DNA of 64,000 nucleotides from assembly GCF_056746865.1 (NCBI RefSeq), contig NZ_CM163382.1. One strand, given 5' to 3'. The first letter of the stretch is position 1; each line of letters starts with the position of its first letter. Below the pieces are notes generated by a model. It was not told the DNA's origin, searched no databases, and was given only the letters and a program-made list of their open reading frames with translations. Positions 3,835 to 43,689 of the stretch are shown one piece after another. The position numbers and the translations under genes were made by a program.

Positions 3835-3911
3835 GCGCCCTTAGCTCAGTTGGATAGAGCAACGACCTTCTAAGTCGTGGGCCGCAGGTTCGAATCCTGC
3901 AGGGCGCGCCA
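3835..3911 (+). tRNA. argU: tRNA-Arg (anticodon UCU)
   Basis: 77-nt cloverleaf GCGCCCTTAGCTCAGTTGGATAGAGC...TTCGAATCCTGCAGGGCGCGCCA with UCU anticodon; 3' 45 nt repeated at 50407-50451. Confidence 0.95.
3867..3911 (+). repeat. attL core (3' part of argU)
   Basis: 45-bp sequence cttctaagtcgtgggccgcaggttcgaatcctgcagggcgcgcca repeated at 50407-50451; integrase gene adjacent. Confidence 0.85.
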
Positions 3912-5090: not shown

Positions 5091-5317
5091 TTTCTTTCCT
5101 CTGTTATGCCATCACCCGCGCTCACCTGGACAGTATGCAGCGGAGACTGAAGCGCCGCAATGCAGGCTTGCCGTGTTGTGAGGTAAGGAGATTTTGGCTT
5201 GGTTGGATCTTTACGTGTTGCCTGTAGGCGGCCTGTTCGTATCCAGTTGGTGGCGGTTGGTCTGGATATCTTAAGAAACTGACAGGCCTCATCGAGTGTG
5301 AGGCTGTATGATTCCAT
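4946..5317 (-). CDS. xis: excisionase / AlpA-like HTH DNA-binding protein
   Basis: HTH segment [26 protein letters not shown]; overlaps int start; exact start and extent uncertain. Confidence 0.5.
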
Positions 5318-9095: not shown

Positions 9096-10028
9096 CTATT
9101 CGATTTTTTTAACCATGTAGTTACGTCGTGATGTTCCTAATCTTTCATTGTGAATCTCAGAAACGCTTACTACGAGCGATATTCGTTCACCAACTTTATA
9201 TTTACTTTGAATTTCTCCTAACATATCAATCGGATAAGAAGCCTTTATTTTTCCAAGCTCGCTTGCAATCTCCAATTTCCCGTACATGGATAAAATAGCA
9301 AGTTCGCCTGATATATGCTCATCCGGTAGCTGAATGACCTTCGTTAAAGCTAAGCGAGCATTCAGTTTTTTTATATCTTCTGAAGAAATTGACACTTGTC
9401 TGGTACCATCACTTAAAGGTCCAATCCAAGTAAGATCAAAGTTAAGACTATATTTTTCGCACTCATTTATGATGTTTTTTAGGTTAGCTGTTGATTGCGA
9501 ACCAATTTCGGCAATTTTAGCCGTGAATGTTTCTTCATCAATGGATGAGAGTAGTGCAAAAATCTCCTTAACAGCATGACTGGATACTGTTTCGATGAGC
9601 TCGCAAGAACCAGTAGAAAAAGTAACACCTAACTTCGTCGAACCTGGACGCAAGTCTGCCAATCTCATGTCTAATGATTTTTTAACATCAATCGGCACAC
9701 GACTAGAATCTTTCCCAGATCCAAGTCGGTAAACTGCTTTCTGTACAAGGGATGCGAGATTACCTGAAATTACAGATAGAATATCTAACGGAATAGACCC
9801 GAAATCGACCAAAACACCTTTTAATCTCAACTCCATGAAATCACGTAAAGGATGTTGGTTATCGATTGCACGTTGTCTCTCTCGGAGATCGCTCAGATGG
9901 GAGTCAAGTGATCTAAATATAATGTCATCAGCAAATGATCTCCCCTTATTTTGAGCAAGCAGATCCACATCGCGTTGAATGAACGCAATTCGCTCCTTGA
10001 GGGAGTTGAATGTTTTTTCTTCGCTCAT
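9096..10028 (-). CDS. hypothetical 310-aa protein, second gene of repressor-linked cargo operon
   Basis: AT-rich ORF, start overlaps upstream gene stop by 4 bp; no recognisable motif; occupies the rexAB-equivalent position. Confidence 0.7.
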   Translation of the reverse strand: MSEEKTFNSLKERIAFIQRDVDLLAQNKGRSFADDIIFRSLDSHLSDLRERQRAIDNQHPLRDFMELRLKGVLVDFGSIPLDILSVISGNLASLVQKAVYRLGSGKDSSRVPIDVKKSLDMRLADLRPGSTKLGVTFSTGSCELIETVSSHAVKEIFALLSSIDEETFTAKIAEIGSQSTANLKNIINECEKYSLNFDLTWIGPLSDGTRQVSISSEDIKKLNARLALTKVIQLPDEHISGELAILSMYGKLEIASELGKIKASYPIDMLGEIQSKYKVGERISLVVSVSEIHNERLGTSRRNYMVKKIE

Positions 10029-10498
10029 AACATTACCCTCACGAGGCCTTTAGGATTCTCCTTCCGATCAAAACCAAACCACCCTCTCCAGTAACTTCGC
10101 CTTTCACTATAATCGATTTCTGGATGATTTTCAGGCAGCAAAAGAACGTCAATGCTGTAGTTTTCTTTAATAAAATCTCTATTTAACAATGAGCTGACCA
10201 ATGGCATCAGCGTGTTTGGCAAAGAGTTTAGGGCCAAATAATCGACGACCACGAGTATATCTATGTCATCAGGTTCAGGTTTCTCTGTAGTGAATGAACC
10301 ATCGATCCACACTTCAGAGAAACATAGACACTGCTGATTAACAAGTTTAAATTGCTCAATAAGCTGTATAAAATTACAGTATAGCATACTTCTTCTAACG
10401 GATTTTGGGAAGGTGTCGACACAAAGAGACTTGATGCCATCACTATCCATATCATGAAATCCTGCTGTAAGAAGAGGTGGGAAGCTAGGCTTTTCCAT
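10025..10498 (-). CDS. nucleotidyltransferase-fold (minimal NTase-like) protein, first gene of cargo operon
   Basis: Motif WIDGSFTTEKPEPDDIDILVVVD fits the G-S...D-x-D signature of Pol-beta-type NTases; 82 bp downstream of cI on same strand. Confidence 0.65.
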   Translation of the reverse strand: MEKPSFPPLLTAGFHDMDSDGIKSLCVDTFPKSVRRSMLYCNFIQLIEQFKLVNQQCLCFSEVWIDGSFTTEKPEPDDIDILVVVDYLALNSLPNTLMPLVSSLLNRDFIKENYSIDVLLLPENHPEIDYSERRSYWRGWFGFDRKENPKGLVRVML

Positions 10499-14474: not shown

Positions 14475-15977
14475 TTAAATTGCATCTGCAAACTCTGGGG
14501 TTTTTCGCTCAGGTATAATTGATGAGTTGCTGTTGTCACTTTTTTTATTTTCATGATTACGAATAGCCAATGACTCATTAAAGTCTTTTGCGACTGCTGT
14601 CTCAATAAATTCAATTTCTGAATCAGAGTGTTTTTTAACAGCTTCTTTGATCTCATCCAGAGTAACATAGAAAAACTCTTTTCTACGATTTACAAGATTG
14701 ACTCTCTTTTTATCGAAGACATCATGTAGTTTTTTTTCTAATGATGGAGCGTCCTCCGAATAAATCATGGCATGTACATCAAAAATAAAAGGAACAGATG
14801 CATCACCGAGCTCATTTACACGGTCTTGCGGATCAAGACGTCGTGTCATGCCTATTTTATAAACATTCTCCCCAAAAGAACCTATGTTCGAAATAATATA
14901 AACATGACCTTGTTTGGTTTGTTGTGCCATGGATAATGCTCTTTGATGCTTTGATTCAGCCTGCGACAAACTCTGTTCTAGTTCGGCAATGCGATTTTCG
15001 AGGCGCTGCTTCATGTCACCAGTAACTTTTTCCATTTCCTTTCTTGCAGCTTCAATTGCTTTTTTATAACGGCGCTCTTCTGCCTCTGCGTCTTGCATGG
15101 CCTTTTCTATTTCTCGTTGTGCACGCTCCTCCTCTCTCATTTGTGCCCTTATTTCTGCCTGTTCTTCTTTTTCTTTCTGTTTTTGCTCACGATATTCATG
15201 GGTAAGCCACAATTCCTCAAGTTTTTTATTGAGGTATTTAGTGTTTATATATATGTGATTTTGCTCGTTTAGTTTATTTATGGCCTCAAATGCCTTTGTG
15301 ATGCGTTCTTCCATTTTAGTGATGTTTTTCCACGTGCAATTGCTAATTGCAGCATCACATTCATTATTAAATGCTCTAGTAGTTAGCCTGATATTTCTGT
15401 CTGTCATTTTTTTACCCTCTGCTCGAGAGCCTTCAACAGTCCATTGGGTTGTACAATATACTGCGCCAGAGTGGGTTTTATCCCGCAGCATTAATTTCTG
15501 TTCATCCCTGATGGATTTTATTTTGTTTTTAAATTGCTCTGAATCTTCAAAATTAAAATGAGGTTCGTAAAATCCTAGTTCGGCTAGCTCAACATCTTCT
15601 GAATAAATAGAAATTTGCCTTACTAGTTTATCATATATTTCTTTCTTCTCTTTATAAGTTCTTCTTAGCTCTTGGATTTGTTTATTGATACCATCCATTT
15701 TTTCAATGGTGTTTGTTAGTTCATTATTGGCATTTTCTTTTACTTTTAGGGATTCTTCTTTTATTATGGAGCATTCTTGCTCTGTTTTCTCAATAAGCTT
15801 CTTACATTCTTCTTCTACATTAAAATAATCTGCAAAGCGAGATTTGTATTCTTCATTTTTTTGATTGCTATCACTTAATTCTAATTGTATTTTTTTGATG
15901 CGTTTGATTGCAGCTATATAAAGAACAAGAACAACCAATAAAAATATGATTGCAAGTAATAGAGGAGTTTGAGTCAT
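14475..15977 (-). CDS. membrane-anchored coiled-coil protein with C-terminal T5orf172/GIY-YIG-like domain (candidate defence/exclusion gene)
   Basis: N-terminal hydrophobic helix, long K/E-rich coiled coil, C-terminal GHVYIISN...YKIGMTRRLDPQDRVNEL...VPF motif; very AT-rich; opposite strand to surrounding early genes. Confidence 0.75.
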   Translation of the reverse strand: MTQTPLLLAIIFLLVVLVLYIAAIKRIKKIQLELSDSNQKNEEYKSRFADYFNVEEECKKLIEKTEQECSIIKEESLKVKENANNELTNTIEKMDGINKQIQELRRTYKEKKEIYDKLVRQISIYSEDVELAELGFYEPHFNFEDSEQFKNKIKSIRDEQKLMLRDKTHSGAVYCTTQWTVEGSRAEGKKMTDRNIRLTTRAFNNECDAAISNCTWKNITKMEERITKAFEAINKLNEQNHIYINTKYLNKKLEELWLTHEYREQKQKEKEEQAEIRAQMREEERAQREIEKAMQDAEAEERRYKKAIEAARKEMEKVTGDMKQRLENRIAELEQSLSQAESKHQRALSMAQQTKQGHVYIISNIGSFGENVYKIGMTRRLDPQDRVNELGDASVPFIFDVHAMIYSEDAPSLEKKLHDVFDKKRVNLVNRRKEFFYVTLDEIKEAVKKHSDSEIEFIETAVAKDFNESLAIRNHENKKSDNSNSSIIPERKTPEFADAI

Positions 15978-16370: not shown

Positions 16371-16789
16371 ACATTCGGTGTTTTACTTCGACAGCCAGAA
16401 TTGGGAGTCTCTATTCGTCTGGCGGCTAAAGGTGATATGGAAATCGTTATGTTTTGGCCTGAGGTAGTTGTAACTGTTGTAGCAGCTATGGATGTGATCA
16501 TCATGGTGTCCATTTACTGGGGTTGACGACATGATTTATCCGGCGCTATATTCTGTGCGTTGCCGCAAAATCGGCACACGGGATTGGCGTCCCGGGATAC
16601 TACTCAACGCATACCGCGTTAAGCGGTTTTTTTGTGCGCTAAGCACGGCTATGCCCAAATTATGGTGGGCTGTGTGAGGGCTTCTTCGGAAGCGCCGGGT
16701 TTGAGTAGCCGGTTACGCCAACCTTACACAGTTCACCACCAGTCGATTGGCGTCGTTGGTGGTGATGGTTAACCTGATGAGGTGATACT

Positions 16790-17398
16790 ATGACTACTCA
16801 ATTAGCATTCCACAAAACGACGTTTACCCCGATTTGCCACAATAACAGAATTTGGCTTACTGCCACTGAAGTTGGTTTAGCACTGGAATATGCGGACGAT
16901 AAAGCAGTTCAGCGCATTTACTCTCGGCACTCAGATGAATTCACAGATATGATGACAAGGGTGGTCAAAGTGACCACCCCTCGTGGAATGCAGGAGTCTC
17001 GAGTATTTAGCCTTCGCGGAGCCCATTTGATCGCCATGTTTGCTCGTACTCCTGTGGCCAAAGAATTCCGCCGCTGGGTTCTGGATATTCTCGATCGAGA
17101 AGTTCAACAATCCCCAATCACAAAACAATTCACTGATAACGAACTTTGCACACTCGCCTGGTTATGGCGAGCAAGTGATACGATGTTAACCGCCTGCCAG
17201 AACGTTACGCCCCTTCTTCAGGTCGCAGAGCATCGCGAAGCAGGTAGATTCACTTCAATCGAACAAGAATATCCTCGGATACTCAACAGGGCGCGAGAAA
17301 TCCTTGCCAGAGAAACGGCGCATGTAAAATTCCAACCGTGGCAGGATGATAAGTGGAGTCGTGTGTTACCATATTTCCGTCAGAATCTGTTGCAATAA
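16790..17398 (+). CDS. Bro-N/antirepressor-like protein
   Basis: N-terminal pattern ...RIWLTATEVGLALEY...RWVLDIL resembles Bro-N/Ant-type phage domains. Confidence 0.55.
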   Translation: MTTQLAFHKTTFTPICHNNRIWLTATEVGLALEYADDKAVQRIYSRHSDEFTDMMTRVVKVTTPRGMQESRVFSLRGAHLIAMFARTPVAKEFRRWVLDILDREVQQSPITKQFTDNELCTLAWLWRASDTMLTACQNVTPLLQVAEHREAGRFTSIEQEYPRILNRAREILARETAHVKFQPWQDDKWSRVLPYFRQNLLQ

Positions 17399-20400: not shown

Positions 20401-21483
20401 TTAGAACTGGTAAACCAGACCTACAGCAACGATGTCATCAGTATCAATACCAGCTGTTTTGGTAAACTTACTATCGTCAATTAAGTTGATTTTGTAATCA
20501 ACAAAAGTGGACATGTTTTTATTAAAGTAGTAAGTAGCACCGACATCGACATACTTGACTAAGTCTCGGTCACCATGAACACCAAGGTCTTTACCTTTTG
20601 ACTGAAGGTAAGCAACAGATGGGCGCAGACCGAAGTCAAACTGATATTGTGCTACTGCTTCAAAGTTTTGTGCTTTGTTTGCAATATGGTTATTACCAAA
20701 AACGGTCATATTCTGAGTTTCAGAATATGTGGTAGCCAGATAGATATTGTTCGCATCATATTTCAGGCCTGCAGCCCATACTTCCGCATTTTTGCCGGAG
20801 GCATTGAATTTGCTCTTACCATAGGCGACCTGACCGTCAGTGCGATCTGATTTAGCATAGGTTGCACCCACGCCGAATCCTTCATACTCATAAGTAGTGG
20901 AGAAACCGAAACCATCACCATTGGCTTCAGTTACGTCAGTGCGGTCATTTTTACCCTGATACTGAGCAGCAAAGTTCAGGCCATCGACCAGACCAAAGAA
21001 GTCGTTGTTACGATAAGTTGCAACACCAGTAGTGCGACCAGTCATGAACACATCTGTTTGGGTCCAGGTATCACCACCGAATTCTGGCAGGACGTCAGTC
21101 CACGCACCGATGTCGTATGCTACACCGTAGTTACGGCCGTAATCGATTGAGCCGTAATCACCAAATTTCAGGCCTGCAAATGCAAGACGGGTTTTGTCTT
21201 TGGAAGAACCTTGAGATTCAGCGCGGTTGCCTTTGAATTCATATTCCCACTGACCGAAACCAGTCAGTTGATCGTTGATTTGGGTTTCACCTTTGAAGCC
21301 AAGACGGGCATAAGTAGTATCACCATCATCTGCATCATTAGAGGAGAAGTAGTGCTTAGCATTAACTTTCCCGTACAGATCCAGCTTGTTACTGTCTTTA
21401 TTATAAATTTCAGCTGCCTGAGCAGACATCGCCATCAGTACTGATGCAGCTACAGCAGAAATTGCCACTGTTAATTTTTTCAT
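20401..21483 (-). CDS. nmpC: general outer-membrane porin (NmpC/OmpD-like), prophage cargo
   Basis: 360-aa product with signal peptide and C-terminal ...VGLVYQF porin ending; located between Q and lysis genes on opposite strand. Confidence 0.85.
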
Positions 21484-33587: not shown

Positions 33588-34328
33588 ATGCCTGTACCAA
33601 ATCCAGTAATGCCGGTGAAAGGGGCCGGGACCACACTGTGGGTTTATAAGGGGAGCGGTGACCCTTATGCGAACCCGCTTTCAGACGTTGACTGGTCGCG
33701 TCTGGCAAAAGTTAAAGACCTGACGCCCGGCGAACTGACCGCTGAGTCCTATGACGACAGCTATCTCGATGATGAAGATGCAGACTGGACTGCGACCGGG
33801 CAGGGGCAGAAATCTGCCGGAGATACCAGCTTCACGCTGGCTTGGATGCCCGGAGAGCAGGGGCAGCAGGCGCTGCTGGCGTGGTTTAATGAAGGTGATA
33901 CCCGTGCCTATAAAATCCGCTTCCCGAACGGCACGGTCGATGTGTTCCGTGGCTGGGTCAGCAGTATCGGTAAGGCGGTGACGGCGAAGGAAGTGATTAC
34001 CCGCACGGTGAAGGTCACCAATGTGGGACGTCCGTCGATGGCAGAAGATCGCAGCACGGTGACGGCGGCCACCGGCATGACGGTAACGCCAGCCAGTGCT
34101 TCCGTAGTGAAAGGGCAGAGCACCACGCTGACCGTGGCCTTCCAGCCGGAAGGGGCAACCGACAAGAGCTTCCGTGCGGTGTCTTCGGATAAAACAAAAG
34201 CCACCGTGTCGGTCAGTGGTATGACCATCACCGTGAACGGCGTTGCTGCAGGCAAGGTCAACATTCCGGTTGTATCTGGTAATGGTGAGTTTGCTGCGGT
34301 TGCAGAAATCACCGTCACCGCCAGTTAA
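33588..34328 (+). CDS. V: major tail tube protein V
   Basis: Start at [15 protein letters not shown]; recognised as lambda gpV. Confidence 0.95.
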
Positions 34329-34343: not shown

Positions 34344-34766
34344 ATGTTCCTGAAAACAGAATCATTTGAACATAACGGTGTGACCGTCACGCTTTCTGAA
34401 CTGTCAGCCCTGCAGCGTATTGAGCATCTCGCCCTGATGAAACGGCAGGCAGAACAGGCGGAGTCAGACAGCAACCGGAAGTTTACTGTGGAAGACGCCA
34501 TCAGAACCGGCGCGTTTCTGGTGGCGATGTCCCTGTGGCATAACCATCCGCAGAAGACAAAGCTGCCTTCCATGAATGAAGCCGTTAAACAGATTGAGCA
34601 GGAAGTGCTTACCACCTGGCCCACAGAGGCAATTTCTCATGCTGAAAACGTGGTGTACCGGCTGTCCGGTATGTCTGAGTTTGTGGTGAATGATGCTCCT
34701 GAACAGGCAGAGGACGCCGGGCCTGCAGAGCCTGTTTCTGCGGGAAAGTGTTCGACGGTGAGCTGA
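34344..34766 (+). CDS. G: tail assembly chaperone G
   Basis: 140-aa product recognised as lambda gpG; slippery GGGAAAG at 34742-34748. Confidence 0.95.
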   Translation: MFLKTESFEHNGVTVTLSELSALQRIEHLALMKRQAEQAESDSNRKFTVEDAIRTGAFLVAMSLWHNHPQKTKLPSMNEAVKQIEQEVLTTWPTEAISHAENVVYRLSGMSEFVVNDAPEQAEDAGPAEPVSAGKCSTVS

Positions 34767-35182
34767 GTTTTGCCCTGAAACTGGCGCGTGAGATGGGGCG
34801 ACCCGACTGGCGCGCCATGCTTGCCGGGATGTCATCCACGGAGTATGCCGACTGGCACCGCTTTTACAGTACCCATTATTTTCATGATGTTCTGCTGGAT
34901 ATGCACTTTTCCGGGCTGACGTACACCGTGCTCAGCCTGTTTTTCAGCGATCCGGAGATGCATCCGCTGGATTTCAGTCTGCTGAACCGGCGCGAGGCTG
35001 ACGAAGAGCCTGAAGATGATGTGCTGATGCAGAAAGCGGCAGGGCTTGCCGGAGGCGTTCGTTTTGGCCTGGACGGGAATGAAGTTATCCCCGCTTCCCC
35101 GGATGTGGCGGACATGACGGAGGATGACGTAATGCTGATGACAGTATCAGAAGGGATCGCAGGAGGAGTCCGGTATGGCTGA
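34748..35182 (+). CDS. T: tail assembly protein T (made as G-T fusion by -1 frameshift)
   Basis: -1 frame ORF overlapping 3' end of G, recognised as lambda gpT. Confidence 0.85.
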   Translation: MFDGELSFALKLAREMGRPDWRAMLAGMSSTEYADWHRFYSTHYFHDVLLDMHFSGLTYTVLSLFFSDPEMHPLDFSLLNRREADEEPEDDVLMQKAAGLAGGVRFGLDGNEVIPASPDVADMTEDDVMLMTVSEGIAGGVRYG

Positions 35183-37730
35183 ACCGGTAGGCGATCTGGT
35201 CGTTGATTTAAGTCTGGATGCGGCCAGATTTGACGAGCAGATGGCCAGAGTCAGGCGTCATTTTTCCGGTACGGAAAGTGATGCGAAAAAAACAGCGGCA
35301 GTCGTTGAACAGTCGATGAACCGGCAGGCGCTGGCTGCACAGAAAGCGGGAATTTCCGTCGGGCAGTATAAAGCCGCCATGCGTATGCTGCCTGCGCAGT
35401 TCACTGACGTGGCCACGCAGCTTGCAGGCGGGCAAAGTCCGTGGCTGATCCTGCTGCAACAGGGGGGGCAGGTGAAGGACTCCTTCGGCGGGATGATCCC
35501 CATGTTCCGGGGGCTTGCCGGTGCGATCACCCTGCCGATGGTGGGGGCCACCTCGCTGGCGGTGGCGACCGGAGCGCTGGCGTATGCCTGGTATCAGGGC
35601 AACTCAACCCTGTCCGATTTCAACAAAACGCTGGTCCTTTCCGGCAATCAGGCGGGACTGACGGCAGATCGTATGCTGGTCCTGTCCAGAGCCGGGCAGG
35701 CGGCAGGGCTGACGTTTAACCAGACCAGCGAGTCACTCAGCGCACTGGTTAAGGCGGGGGTAAGCGGTGAGGCTCAGATTGCGTCCATCAGCCAGAGTGT
35801 GGCGCGTTTCTCCTCTGCATCCGGCGTGGAGGTGGACAAGGTCGCTGAAGCCTTCGGGAAGCTGACCACAGACCCGACGTCGGGGCTGACGGCGATGGCA
35901 CGCCAGTTCCATAACGTGACGGCGGAGCAGATTGCGTATGTTGCTCAGTTGCAGCGTTCCGGCGATGAAGCCGGGGCATTGCAGGCGGCGAACGAGGCCG
36001 CAACGAAAGGGTTTGATGACCAGACCCGACGCCTGAAAGAGAACATGGGCACGCTGGAAACCTGGGCAGACAGGACAGCACGGGCATTCAAATCCATGTG
36101 GGATGCGGTGCTGGATATTGGTCGTCCTGATACCGCTCAGGAGATGCTGATTAAGGCAGAGGCTGCGTTTAAGAAAGCAGACGACATCTGGAATCTGCGC
36201 AAGGATGATTATTTTGTTAACGATGAAGCGCGGGCACGTTACTGGGATGATCGTGAAAAGGCCCGTCTTGCGCTTGAAGCCGCCCGAAAGAAGGCTGAGC
36301 AGCAGAGTCAACAGGACAAAAATGCGCAGCAGCAGAGCGATACCGAAGCGTCACGGCTGAAATATACCGAAGAGGCGCAGAAGGCTTACGAACGGCTGCA
36401 GACGCCGCTGGAGAAATATACCGCCCGTCAGGAAGAACTGAACAAGGCACTGAAGGACGGGAAAATTCTGCAGGCAGATTACAACACGCTGATGGCGGCG
36501 GCGAAAAAGGACTATGAAGCGACGCTGAAAAAGCCGAAAGGCGTGAAGGTGTCTGCGGGCGATCGTCAGGAAGACAGTGCTCATGCTGCCCTGCTGACGC
36601 TTCAGGCAGAACTCCGGACGCTGGAGAAGCATGCCGGAGCGAATGAGAAAATCAGCCAGCAGCGCCGGGATTTGTGGAAGGCAGAAAGTCAGTTCGCGGT
36701 ACTGGAGGAGGCGGCACAACGTCGCCAGCTGTCCGCACAGGAGAAATCCCTGCTGGCGCATAAAGACGAGACGCTGGAGTACAAACGCCAGCTGGCTGTA
36801 CTTGGCGACAAGGTCACCTATCAGGAGCACCTGAACGCGCTGGCGCAGCAGGCGGATAAGTTCGCACAGCAACAACGGGCAAAACGGGCCGCCATTGATG
36901 CAAAAAAACGGGGGCTGACTGACCGGCAGGCAGCGCGGGAAGCCACGGAACAGCGCCTGAAGGAACAGTATGGCGATAATCCGCTGGCGCTGAATAACGT
37001 CATGTCAGAGCAGAAAAAGACCTGGGCGGCTGAAGACCAGCTTCGCGGGAGCTGGATGGCAGGCCTGAAGTCCGGCTGGAGTGAGTGGGAAGAGAGCGCC
37101 ACGGACAGTATGTCGCAGGTTAAAAGTGCTGCCACGCAGACCTTTGATGGTATTGCACAGAATATGGCGGCGATGCTGACCGGCAGTGAGCAGAACTGGC
37201 GCAGCTTCACCCGTTCCGTGCTGTCCATGATGACAGAAATTCTGCTTAAGCAGGCAATGGTGGGGATTGTCGGGAGTATCGGCAGCGCCATTGGCGGGGC
37301 TGTTGGTGGCGGCGCGTCCGCGTCAGGCGGTACAGCCATTCAGGCCGCTGCGGCGAAATTCCATTTTGCAACCGGAGGATTTACGGGAACCGGCGGCAAA
37401 TATGAGCCAGCGGGGATTGTTCACCGCGGTGAATTTGTCTTCACGAAGGAGGCAACCAGCCGGATTGGCGTGGGGAATCTCTACCGGCTGATGCGCGGCT
37501 ATGCCACCGGTGGTTATGTCGGTACACCGGGCAGCATGGCGGACAGCCGGTCGCAGGCGTCCGGGAAGTTTGAGCAGAATAACCATGTGGTGATTAACAA
37601 CGACGGCACGAACGGTCAGATAGGGCCACAGGCGCTGAAGGCGGTTTATGACGTAGCCCGTAAGGCGGCAATGGATGTTGTGACCGGGCAGATGCGTGAT
37701 GGTGGTCTGTTCTCCGGAGGTGGACGATGA
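35175..37730 (+). CDS. H: tail tape-measure protein H
   Basis: 851-aa product recognised as lambda gpH. Confidence 0.95.
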   Translation: MAEPVGDLVVDLSLDAARFDEQMARVRRHFSGTESDAKKTAAVVEQSMNRQALAAQKAGISVGQYKAAMRMLPAQFTDVATQLAGGQSPWLILLQQGGQVKDSFGGMIPMFRGLAGAITLPMVGATSLAVATGALAYAWYQGNSTLSDFNKTLVLSGNQAGLTADRMLVLSRAGQAAGLTFNQTSESLSALVKAGVSGEAQIASISQSVARFSSASGVEVDKVAEAFGKLTTDPTSGLTAMARQFHNVTAEQIAYVAQLQRSGDEAGALQAANEAATKGFDDQTRRLKENMGTLETWADRTARAFKSMWDAVLDIGRPDTAQEMLIKAEAAFKKADDIWNLRKDDYFVNDEARARYWDDREKARLALEAARKKAEQQSQQDKNAQQQSDTEASRLKYTEEAQKAYERLQTPLEKYTARQEELNKALKDGKILQADYNTLMAAAKKDYEATLKKPKGVKVSAGDRQEDSAHAALLTLQAELRTLEKHAGANEKISQQRRDLWKAESQFAVLEEAAQRRQLSAQEKSLLAHKDETLEYKRQLAVLGDKVTYQEHLNALAQQADKFAQQQRAKRAAIDAKKRGLTDRQAAREATEQRLKEQYGDNPLALNNVMSEQKKTWAAEDQLRGSWMAGLKSGWSEWEESATDSMSQVKSAATQTFDGIAQNMAAMLTGSEQNWRSFTRSVLSMMTEILLKQAMVGIVGSIGSAIGGAVGGGASASGGTAIQAAAAKFHFATGGFTGTGGKYEPAGIVHRGEFVFTKEATSRIGVGNLYRLMRGYATGGYVGTPGSMADSRSQASGKFEQNNHVVINNDGTNGQIGPQALKAVYDVARKAAMDVVTGQMRDGGLFSGGGR

Positions 37731-43629: not shown

Positions 43630-43689
43630 AATATTTATAACCCCAATACGGGCGCCAGAAATGGCGCCTTTTTTATTTGTGGAGTGAGT

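Follow-up and report, generated by a model that had tools for sequence, protein, structure and literature searches.

The frameshift that joins the lambda tail genes G and T is reportedly the subject of work by Levin, Hendrix and Casjens in 1993 and by Xu, Hendrix and Duda in 2004, 2013 and 2014, and a conserved class of lambda-type G/GT tail chaperone frameshifts is said to have been described by Xu and colleagues in 2004. As cited in two later papers (PMC5009743, PMC3296357), the lambda G/GT frameshift was shown experimentally by Levin et al. 1993. The same papers, citing Levin 1993 and Xu 2013/2014, describe the fusion product, its frequency, its essentiality and its protein contacts as shown in lambda. 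In lambda, translation continues in the 0 frame in about 96% of passages and slips by -1 at G_GGA_AAG in about 4%, at a rate that depends on the mnm5s2U34 modification of tRNA-Lys(UUU) (PMC3296357). G outnumbers GT 30:1 in molar terms, a ratio on which tail assembly critically depends. The protein H is bound by G, free or within GT, and V by the T portion; neither G nor GT is present in the virion (PMC5009743). The Results text of PMC3296357 prints the lambda heptamer as GGGTTTG (GGT-TTG / GGG-TTT) and Table 1 of the same paper gives GGGAAAG; the former is a misprint.

The lambda site belongs to a wider group of bacterial recoding signals. Two motifs, G_GG.A_AA.G and A_AA.A_AA.G, rank in the top three for -1 efficiency in E. 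coli, and efficient bacterial -1 motifs permit cognate re-pairing in the A site (PMC4066793). The gpG cluster G_GGA_AAG_4 was entered as a true case of -1 programmed ribosomal frameshifting by Sharma et al. 2014 (PMC4066793). E. coli dnaX and the insertion sequences IS911 and IS3 share with G-T the X_XXA_AAG tandem-slippage class, decoded by tRNA-Lys(mnm5s2UUU) (PMC4066793, PMC5009743). Unlike G-T, they carry proven stimulators (an upstream Shine-Dalgarno-like element and/or a 3' hairpin or pseudoknot) and are far more efficient, lambda G-T reaching only about 4% without a proven stimulator. The logic of the products also differs from that of G-T: slippage in dnaX gives a shorter product and slippage in the insertion sequences gives a transposase fusion.

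The G-T locus and its reading frames

The DNA analysed here (the window) is a stretch of 64,000 nucleotides from contig NZ_CM163382.1 of RefSeq assembly GCF_056746865.1. An earlier note on this DNA had placed a conserved, lambda-like -1 frameshift site near the 3' end of G, with the T frame open in -1. The features of the locus are as follows.

33588..34328, + strand: V gene, major tail tube protein, directly 5' of G (Phage_TTP_12, E=1.5e-70, plus Big_2; PGAP)
34344..34766, + strand: G gene, tail assembly chaperone, 0-frame product of 140 aa (ORF list, Pfam, NCBIfam, PGAP)
34703..34766, + strand: G/T overlap of 21 codons with both frames open, between the -1-frame stop at 34700 and the G stop at 34764
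34742..34748, + strand: slippery heptamer G_GGA_AAG, -1 programmed ribosomal frameshift site (sequence, phase, conservation)
34748..35182, + strand: T segment, -1 frame after the slip, 144 codons plus TGA at 35180-35182, predicted to be made solely as the C-terminal portion of GT (open frame, Pfam, TIGR01715)
34344..35182, + strand: predicted GT fusion of 279 aa, join(34344..34748, 34748..35182), constructed from the sequence
35175..37730, + strand: H gene, tape measure protein (TMP_2, E=7.4e-70; Tape_meas_lam_C, E=3.7e-21)

The heptamer GGGAAAG occupies 34742-34748 of the + strand, flanked by CCTGTTTCTGC on the 5' side and TGTTCGACGGTGAGCTGA on the 3' side, within the G/T overlap and close to the 3' end of G. 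In the frame of the ORF beginning at 34344 it reads G_GGA_AAG (GCG at 34740, GGA at 34743, AAG at 34746), which is the X_XXY_YYZ phase that tandem -1 slippage requires. Five codons separate it from the 0-frame stop (TGA, 34764-34766). The open stretch of the -1 frame runs from 34703 to 35182 and leaves 144 codons downstream of the slip point. The position, the placement near the 3' end of G and the open T frame claimed in the earlier note were thus exact, and its names for the two genes were borne out by equivalog-level matches to TIGR01674 and TIGR01715.

The ORF called G matched Pfam PF06894, Phage_TAC_2 (E=4.5e-59), and the NCBIfam equivalog TIGR01674, phage_lambda_G (211.9 bits against a cut-off of 74.45; E=2.7e-63); the PGAP name for the identical gene is 'gpG: phage tail assembly chaperone G'. 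The -1 ORF matched Pfam PF06223, Phage_tail_T (E=2e-14), and, over fusion residues 140-245, the NCBIfam equivalog TIGR01715, phage_lam_T (181.7 bits against a cut-off of 77.35; E=3.7e-54). A search of the PDB by sequence found no relatives of GT. The PGAP coding sequence of V, at 19289-20029 of L004, corresponds to window 33588-34328. At the other side of the pair, the first 8 nt of H, with its ATG start, are also the last 8 nt of T, and a strong Shine-Dalgarno sequence (duplex, -10.3 kcal/mol) precedes this ATG. The synteny is V-G-T-H, with the overlapping G/T pair between the tail tube and tape measure genes.

Comparison with lambda and related phages

The G-T segment matched 143 phage records. 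Aligned over 171 nt with lambda (NC_001416), the junction is identical across 107 nt, from 66 nt upstream to 34 nt downstream of the heptamer. The likeness to lambda asserted in the earlier note therefore extends, at the junction, to base-for-base identity. The heptamer, its phase, the 5-codon distance to the G stop and the V-G-T-H synteny are all shared with lambda. The heptamer itself is the same in lambda, 434 and HK630, as are the length and architecture of GT (in lambda, G of 140 aa, a T part of 144 codons and GT of 279 aa). Outside the junction, the G and T genes of the window differ from those of lambda at a small number of positions (about 98% DNA identity; G protein 96% identical), and the prophage lies at argU and not at attB-lambda. 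The closest sequenced phage is 434 (OL657226, CPT_434_14/15), with 99.4-99.5% identity over G-T and essentially no difference at this locus. Its record joins two pieces into a single GT CDS, named 'GT tape measure protein chaperone frameshift product'.

More distant phages retain the site in other forms. N15 (gp14/gp15), phi80 (gp13/14) and LLS (gp11/12) share homologous G and T genes and the same position of the slip site, which the N15 and LLS records label as a -1 frameshift site. They differ from the window in the heptamer, G_GAA_AAG (P-site codon GAA, a non-canonical XXY), in a shorter T part (113-115 codons) and in G proteins that are 42-47% identical. Phages of the Stx or CP-1639 type (ECs1801 cluster A_AAA_AAG_25) likewise share homologous G and T and the position of the slip site, and differ in having A_AAA_AAG and a G that is about 41-43% identical. 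For that cluster a downstream structure was predicted (Sharma et al. 2014, PMC4066793).

Ten sequences were compared in detail: the window, lambda, 434, HK630, PhiR12_1, CP-1639, Stx1_1380, N15, phi80 and LLS. G protein identity to the window ranged from 41 to 96% across the set (41-47% in the most distant). Despite this range, every one of the ten has a slippery heptamer at exactly the same distance, 5 codons, from the G stop. Three variants were observed, GGGAAAG, GGAAAAG and AAAAAAG, all ending in A_AAG, and the lysine of the slip site was invariant in the G alignment. Cognate re-pairing in the A site explains which variants the relatives tolerate. Conservation of T-frame residues (xFxGELxFxLKLAREMGRPDWRAMLAGM) starts at the first post-slip codon. 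A sample of 80 loci from IMG/VR, 77 of them usable, gave the same picture: GGGAAAG was in register in 76 of the 77 and at the homologous DNA position in every one. The conservation of the site claimed in the earlier note was upheld in both sets. As judged from these alignments, the pattern is the one that a selected recoding site would be expected to leave.

One IMG/VR locus, L070 (IMGVR_UViG_2695420576_000005), was considered as a locus lacking the heptamer and was rejected as such: GGGAAAG is there, and an upstream 4-nt indel truncates G. The indel, with a diverged patch, lies at about 1860-1905, some 35 nt before the heptamer; G ends prematurely as a result, and GGGAAAG and T stay intact. 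The locus could be a pseudogene or an assembly error.

Expectation by chance

GGGAAAG by itself is not rarer than chance. Counting both strands, the window has 14 copies where shuffled sequences have 7.85 +/- 2.67, and the mechanical ORFs of at least 80 aa in the window hold 102 in-phase slippery heptamers of the form X_XXY_YYZ. Given these numbers, mere presence of the heptamer is no evidence, and phase, position and conservation were used instead. When the codons of G were shuffled, any in-phase slippery heptamer appeared within the last 21 codons in just 2.1% of shuffles. In-phase sites followed by at least 100 open -1 codons numbered 12 in the window, and only the G-T site has an annotated gene as its 0-frame ORF; the remaining 11 sit in mechanical ORFs that are off-frame or antisense within terminase, portal, J, the tail fibre gene, H, V, L, bet and int. 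Combined, phase, position and conservation exceed chance.

We conclude, with a probability of about 97%, that the tail assembly chaperone genes G and T carry here a -1 programmed ribosomal frameshift site of the lambda type. On the model of lambda, most ribosomes would read G_GGA_AAG in frame and stop 5 codons later, releasing gpG of 140 aa. A few percent would slip by -1 with tRNA-Gly on GGA in the P site and tRNA-Lys on AAG in the A site; the slipped tRNAs would re-pair with GGG and AAA, and the T frame would be read to 35182, giving gpGT of 279 aa. The G part of both proteins would then coat the tape measure protein H, and the T part of the rare GT would recruit the tube protein V, so that the tube polymerises round the tape measure. 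The ratio of G to GT would be set by the fixed, low rate of slippage.

Prophage setting and integrity

The locus is part of a lambda-like prophage that is complete and occupies the argU/DLP12 site in an E. coli chromosome. The gene order runs from the sfm fimbrial genes through tRNA-Arg(tct) (3835-3911) and intD into the lambdoid prophage, and on to appY-ompT-envY-ybcH-nfrA. Within the prophage the order is exo-bet-gam, repressor, O/P/ren, nin region, Q, lysis genes, terminase through J, and tail fibres. intD is intact, and the prophage adjoins tRNA-Arg(tct) (argU). The first 20 kb of the window are 100% identical to several E. coli chromosomes, and 14300-55200 is collinear with strain 2017C-4173W12 at 99.83% identity.

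Such a setting raises the possibility that the slip site is an inert relic of a defective prophage, retained here through recent descent and not through function. The DLP12 site of E. coli K-12 carries a heavily decayed prophage, and PGAP marks two pseudogenes in the window, a xis-like HTH gene (about 5252-5317) and a tail fibre assembly gene (about 47375-47485). Because of these two, the prophage is possibly non-inducible or does not yield infectious particles; the otherwise complete element may be defective in excision or in its tail fibres. From terminase through J, every head and tail gene is nevertheless an intact ORF in lambda order, and neither G, the heptamer nor T carries a disabling change. 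Many unrelated E. coli strains share the G-T segment at 100% identity, and phage 434, a viable isolated phage, matches it at 99.4%. We therefore regard a relic as unlikely, and the identity of the element would be unaffected even if the prophage were unable to excise.

Several other genes of the prophage were noted. On the - strand at 9096-10498, adjacent genes of 310 and 157 aa (the latter DUF6932) lie beside the S24 repressor, in the position of lambda's rexAB; in PADLOC the pair matched the candidate defence system PDC-M63B (E=4e-42) and PDC-M63A (E=7e-43). A 500-aa DUF4041 protein is encoded at 14475-15977 (- strand), between ren and the antirepressor region, and matched PADLOC PD-Lambda-1 (E=2e-198). 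We take this gene to be a known prophage-borne anti-phage defence gene of the PD-Lambda-1 type. Rfam models for isrK (16561-16633, 58.7 bits) and C4 antisense RNA (16658-16743, 74.8 bits) matched the + strand directly upstream of a P22AR-type antirepressor-like gene (16790-17398), an arrangement that suggests a P1/P7-style antisense immunity module within a lambdoid prophage. A porin gene annotated ompC, in the DLP12 nmpC position, lies on the opposite strand between the Q antiterminator and holin genes (20401-21483, - strand) and looks like a lysogenic-conversion 'moron'. Within the large tail fibre gene (43684-46059), a direct repeat occupies 44221-44659 (about 250 bp, 84% identity, offset 189 bp).

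Initiation of T and other routes to the fusion

T could in principle be an independent gene that starts at the GTG at 34748, with the heptamer incidental. This is how the databases present it: PGAP gives a separate GTG-start CDS, 'phage tail assembly protein T' (L004 20449-20883, equivalent to window 34748-35182), the lambda reference record likewise shows T as a separate GTG-start CDS, and the mechanical ORF list begins the T ORF at the same GTG. The PGAP entry is, however, an annotation convention and not evidence. The GTG consists of the Z base of the heptamer and the two bases that follow, and is a by-product of the lambda-type sequence only: the homologous first post-slip codon is GTC in PhiR12_1, GCC in N15, phi80 and LLS, and GCA in CP-1639 and Stx1_1380; of the 8 relatives tabulated, 5 lack a start codon there. 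A start codon thus follows the slip in lambda-type sequences only, and T lacks a conserved start. In the phages without GTG, the earliest potential start lies 9-23 codons into conserved T sequence. Upstream of the GTG in the window, the best anti-Shine-Dalgarno pairing was -4.3 kcal/mol and was centred a few bases away, as compared with -10.3 for H. Expression of the lambda T reading frame is described solely as part of gpGT (PMC5009743, PMC3296357). Conservation of the T frame starts precisely at the slip point, the start codon is not conserved and the Shine-Dalgarno match is weak; on these grounds independent initiation of T was rejected as highly improbable.

The records differ in how they present T. 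Those of PhiR12_1, CP-1639 and phi80 begin it at a downstream ATG, losing conserved residues. The RefSeq/PGAP and lambda reference entries for T carry no ribosomal-slippage join; those of 434, N15 and LLS give the fusion or the slippery site.

Polymerase slippage is supported by homopolymer runs far longer than AAA. Transcriptional slippage, in which RNA polymerase would add or drop a base in the A-run to create the fusion, is a known alternative route to such fusions in other systems (PMC5009743) and might draw on the longer run of AAAAAAG in CP-1639 and Stx1_1380, but it was rejected as the least probable reading of all, since the run in the window (GGGAAAG) is just 3 nt, the conserved feature is the tRNA re-pairing pattern X_XXA_AAG in fixed phase and not run length, the lambda rate responds to modification of U34 of tRNA-Lys, a translational property (PMC3296357), and lambda GT is explicitly classed as ribosomal frameshifting in review (PMC5009743).

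A candidate downstream hairpin

The sequence around the heptamer was considered as a source of slip efficiency. Direct reading of the 30 nt that precede the heptamer revealed no Shine-Dalgarno-like element. On the downstream side one further feature was recorded.

34756..34826, + strand: candidate hairpin, 7 nt past the heptamer (folding, consensus fold)

Its outer helix pairs 34756-34763 with 34819-34826 and its inner helix pairs 34782-34797 with 34802-34817. The minimum free energy of the 100 nt downstream of the heptamer was -40.6 kcal/mol (z=-1.99 relative to shuffles). In a consensus fold of 8 relatives, 95.5% of cells were paired; 14 of the 22 pairs were invariant, and double-sided changes occurred in only 2. 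Adding 25 distinct sequences left the picture unchanged. One locus, L014, showed many apparent mismatches when the hairpin was checked in fixed register; our guess is an indel or a divergent segment.

Constraint on synonymous positions was measured in 8 sequences. The codons of invariant residues were identical in 6 of 13 cases within the hairpin zone and in 7 of 52 elsewhere (Fisher p=0.016); measured against the rest of T alone, synonymous conservation of the hairpin zone was not significant (p=0.13). The helix falls within the most conserved T peptide (LAREMGRPDWRAML), and coding and RNA constraint are therefore inseparable in these data. The signal for a stimulatory hairpin is thus suggestive only, and may alternatively reflect the conserved T peptide alone.

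Reporter measurements indicate how much context can matter: frameshifting at G_GGA_AAG was 0.28% for the bare motif, 3.8% when the IS911 stimulator was present and 43% when the pseudoknot of IS3 was (PMC4066793 supplement). Set against the rate of about 4% in lambda, the 0.28% of the bare motif makes a contribution of context likely in lambda. Whether this contribution comes from the hairpin at 34756-34826, acting as a 3' stimulator that lifts slippage from about 0.3% to about 4%, is doubtful on present data, and we advance the idea tentatively. A stimulatory hairpin here is also not new. It was already flagged computationally by Sharma et al. 2014, whose Table S4 lists the gpG cluster G_GGA_AAG_4 with a predicted downstream structure, 'N/Y' (PMC4066793).

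Implications

The site is real but ordinary and already described: it is a textbook example, the G-T frameshift of lambda, in a prophage copy that is nearly identical. By analogy with lambda, we infer that GT would be produced upon induction of the window prophage. The immediate consequence is for annotation only, in that RefSeq/PGAP annotation of identical prophages omits GT, the biologically relevant product. If the downstream hairpin does act as a stimulator, the ratio of G to GT would be tunable by RNA structure; the roughly ten-fold rise above the bare motif is a matter for lambda biology generally and is not specific to the window. For the prophage itself, the slip site shows that an intact lambda-type tail assembly module has been retained.
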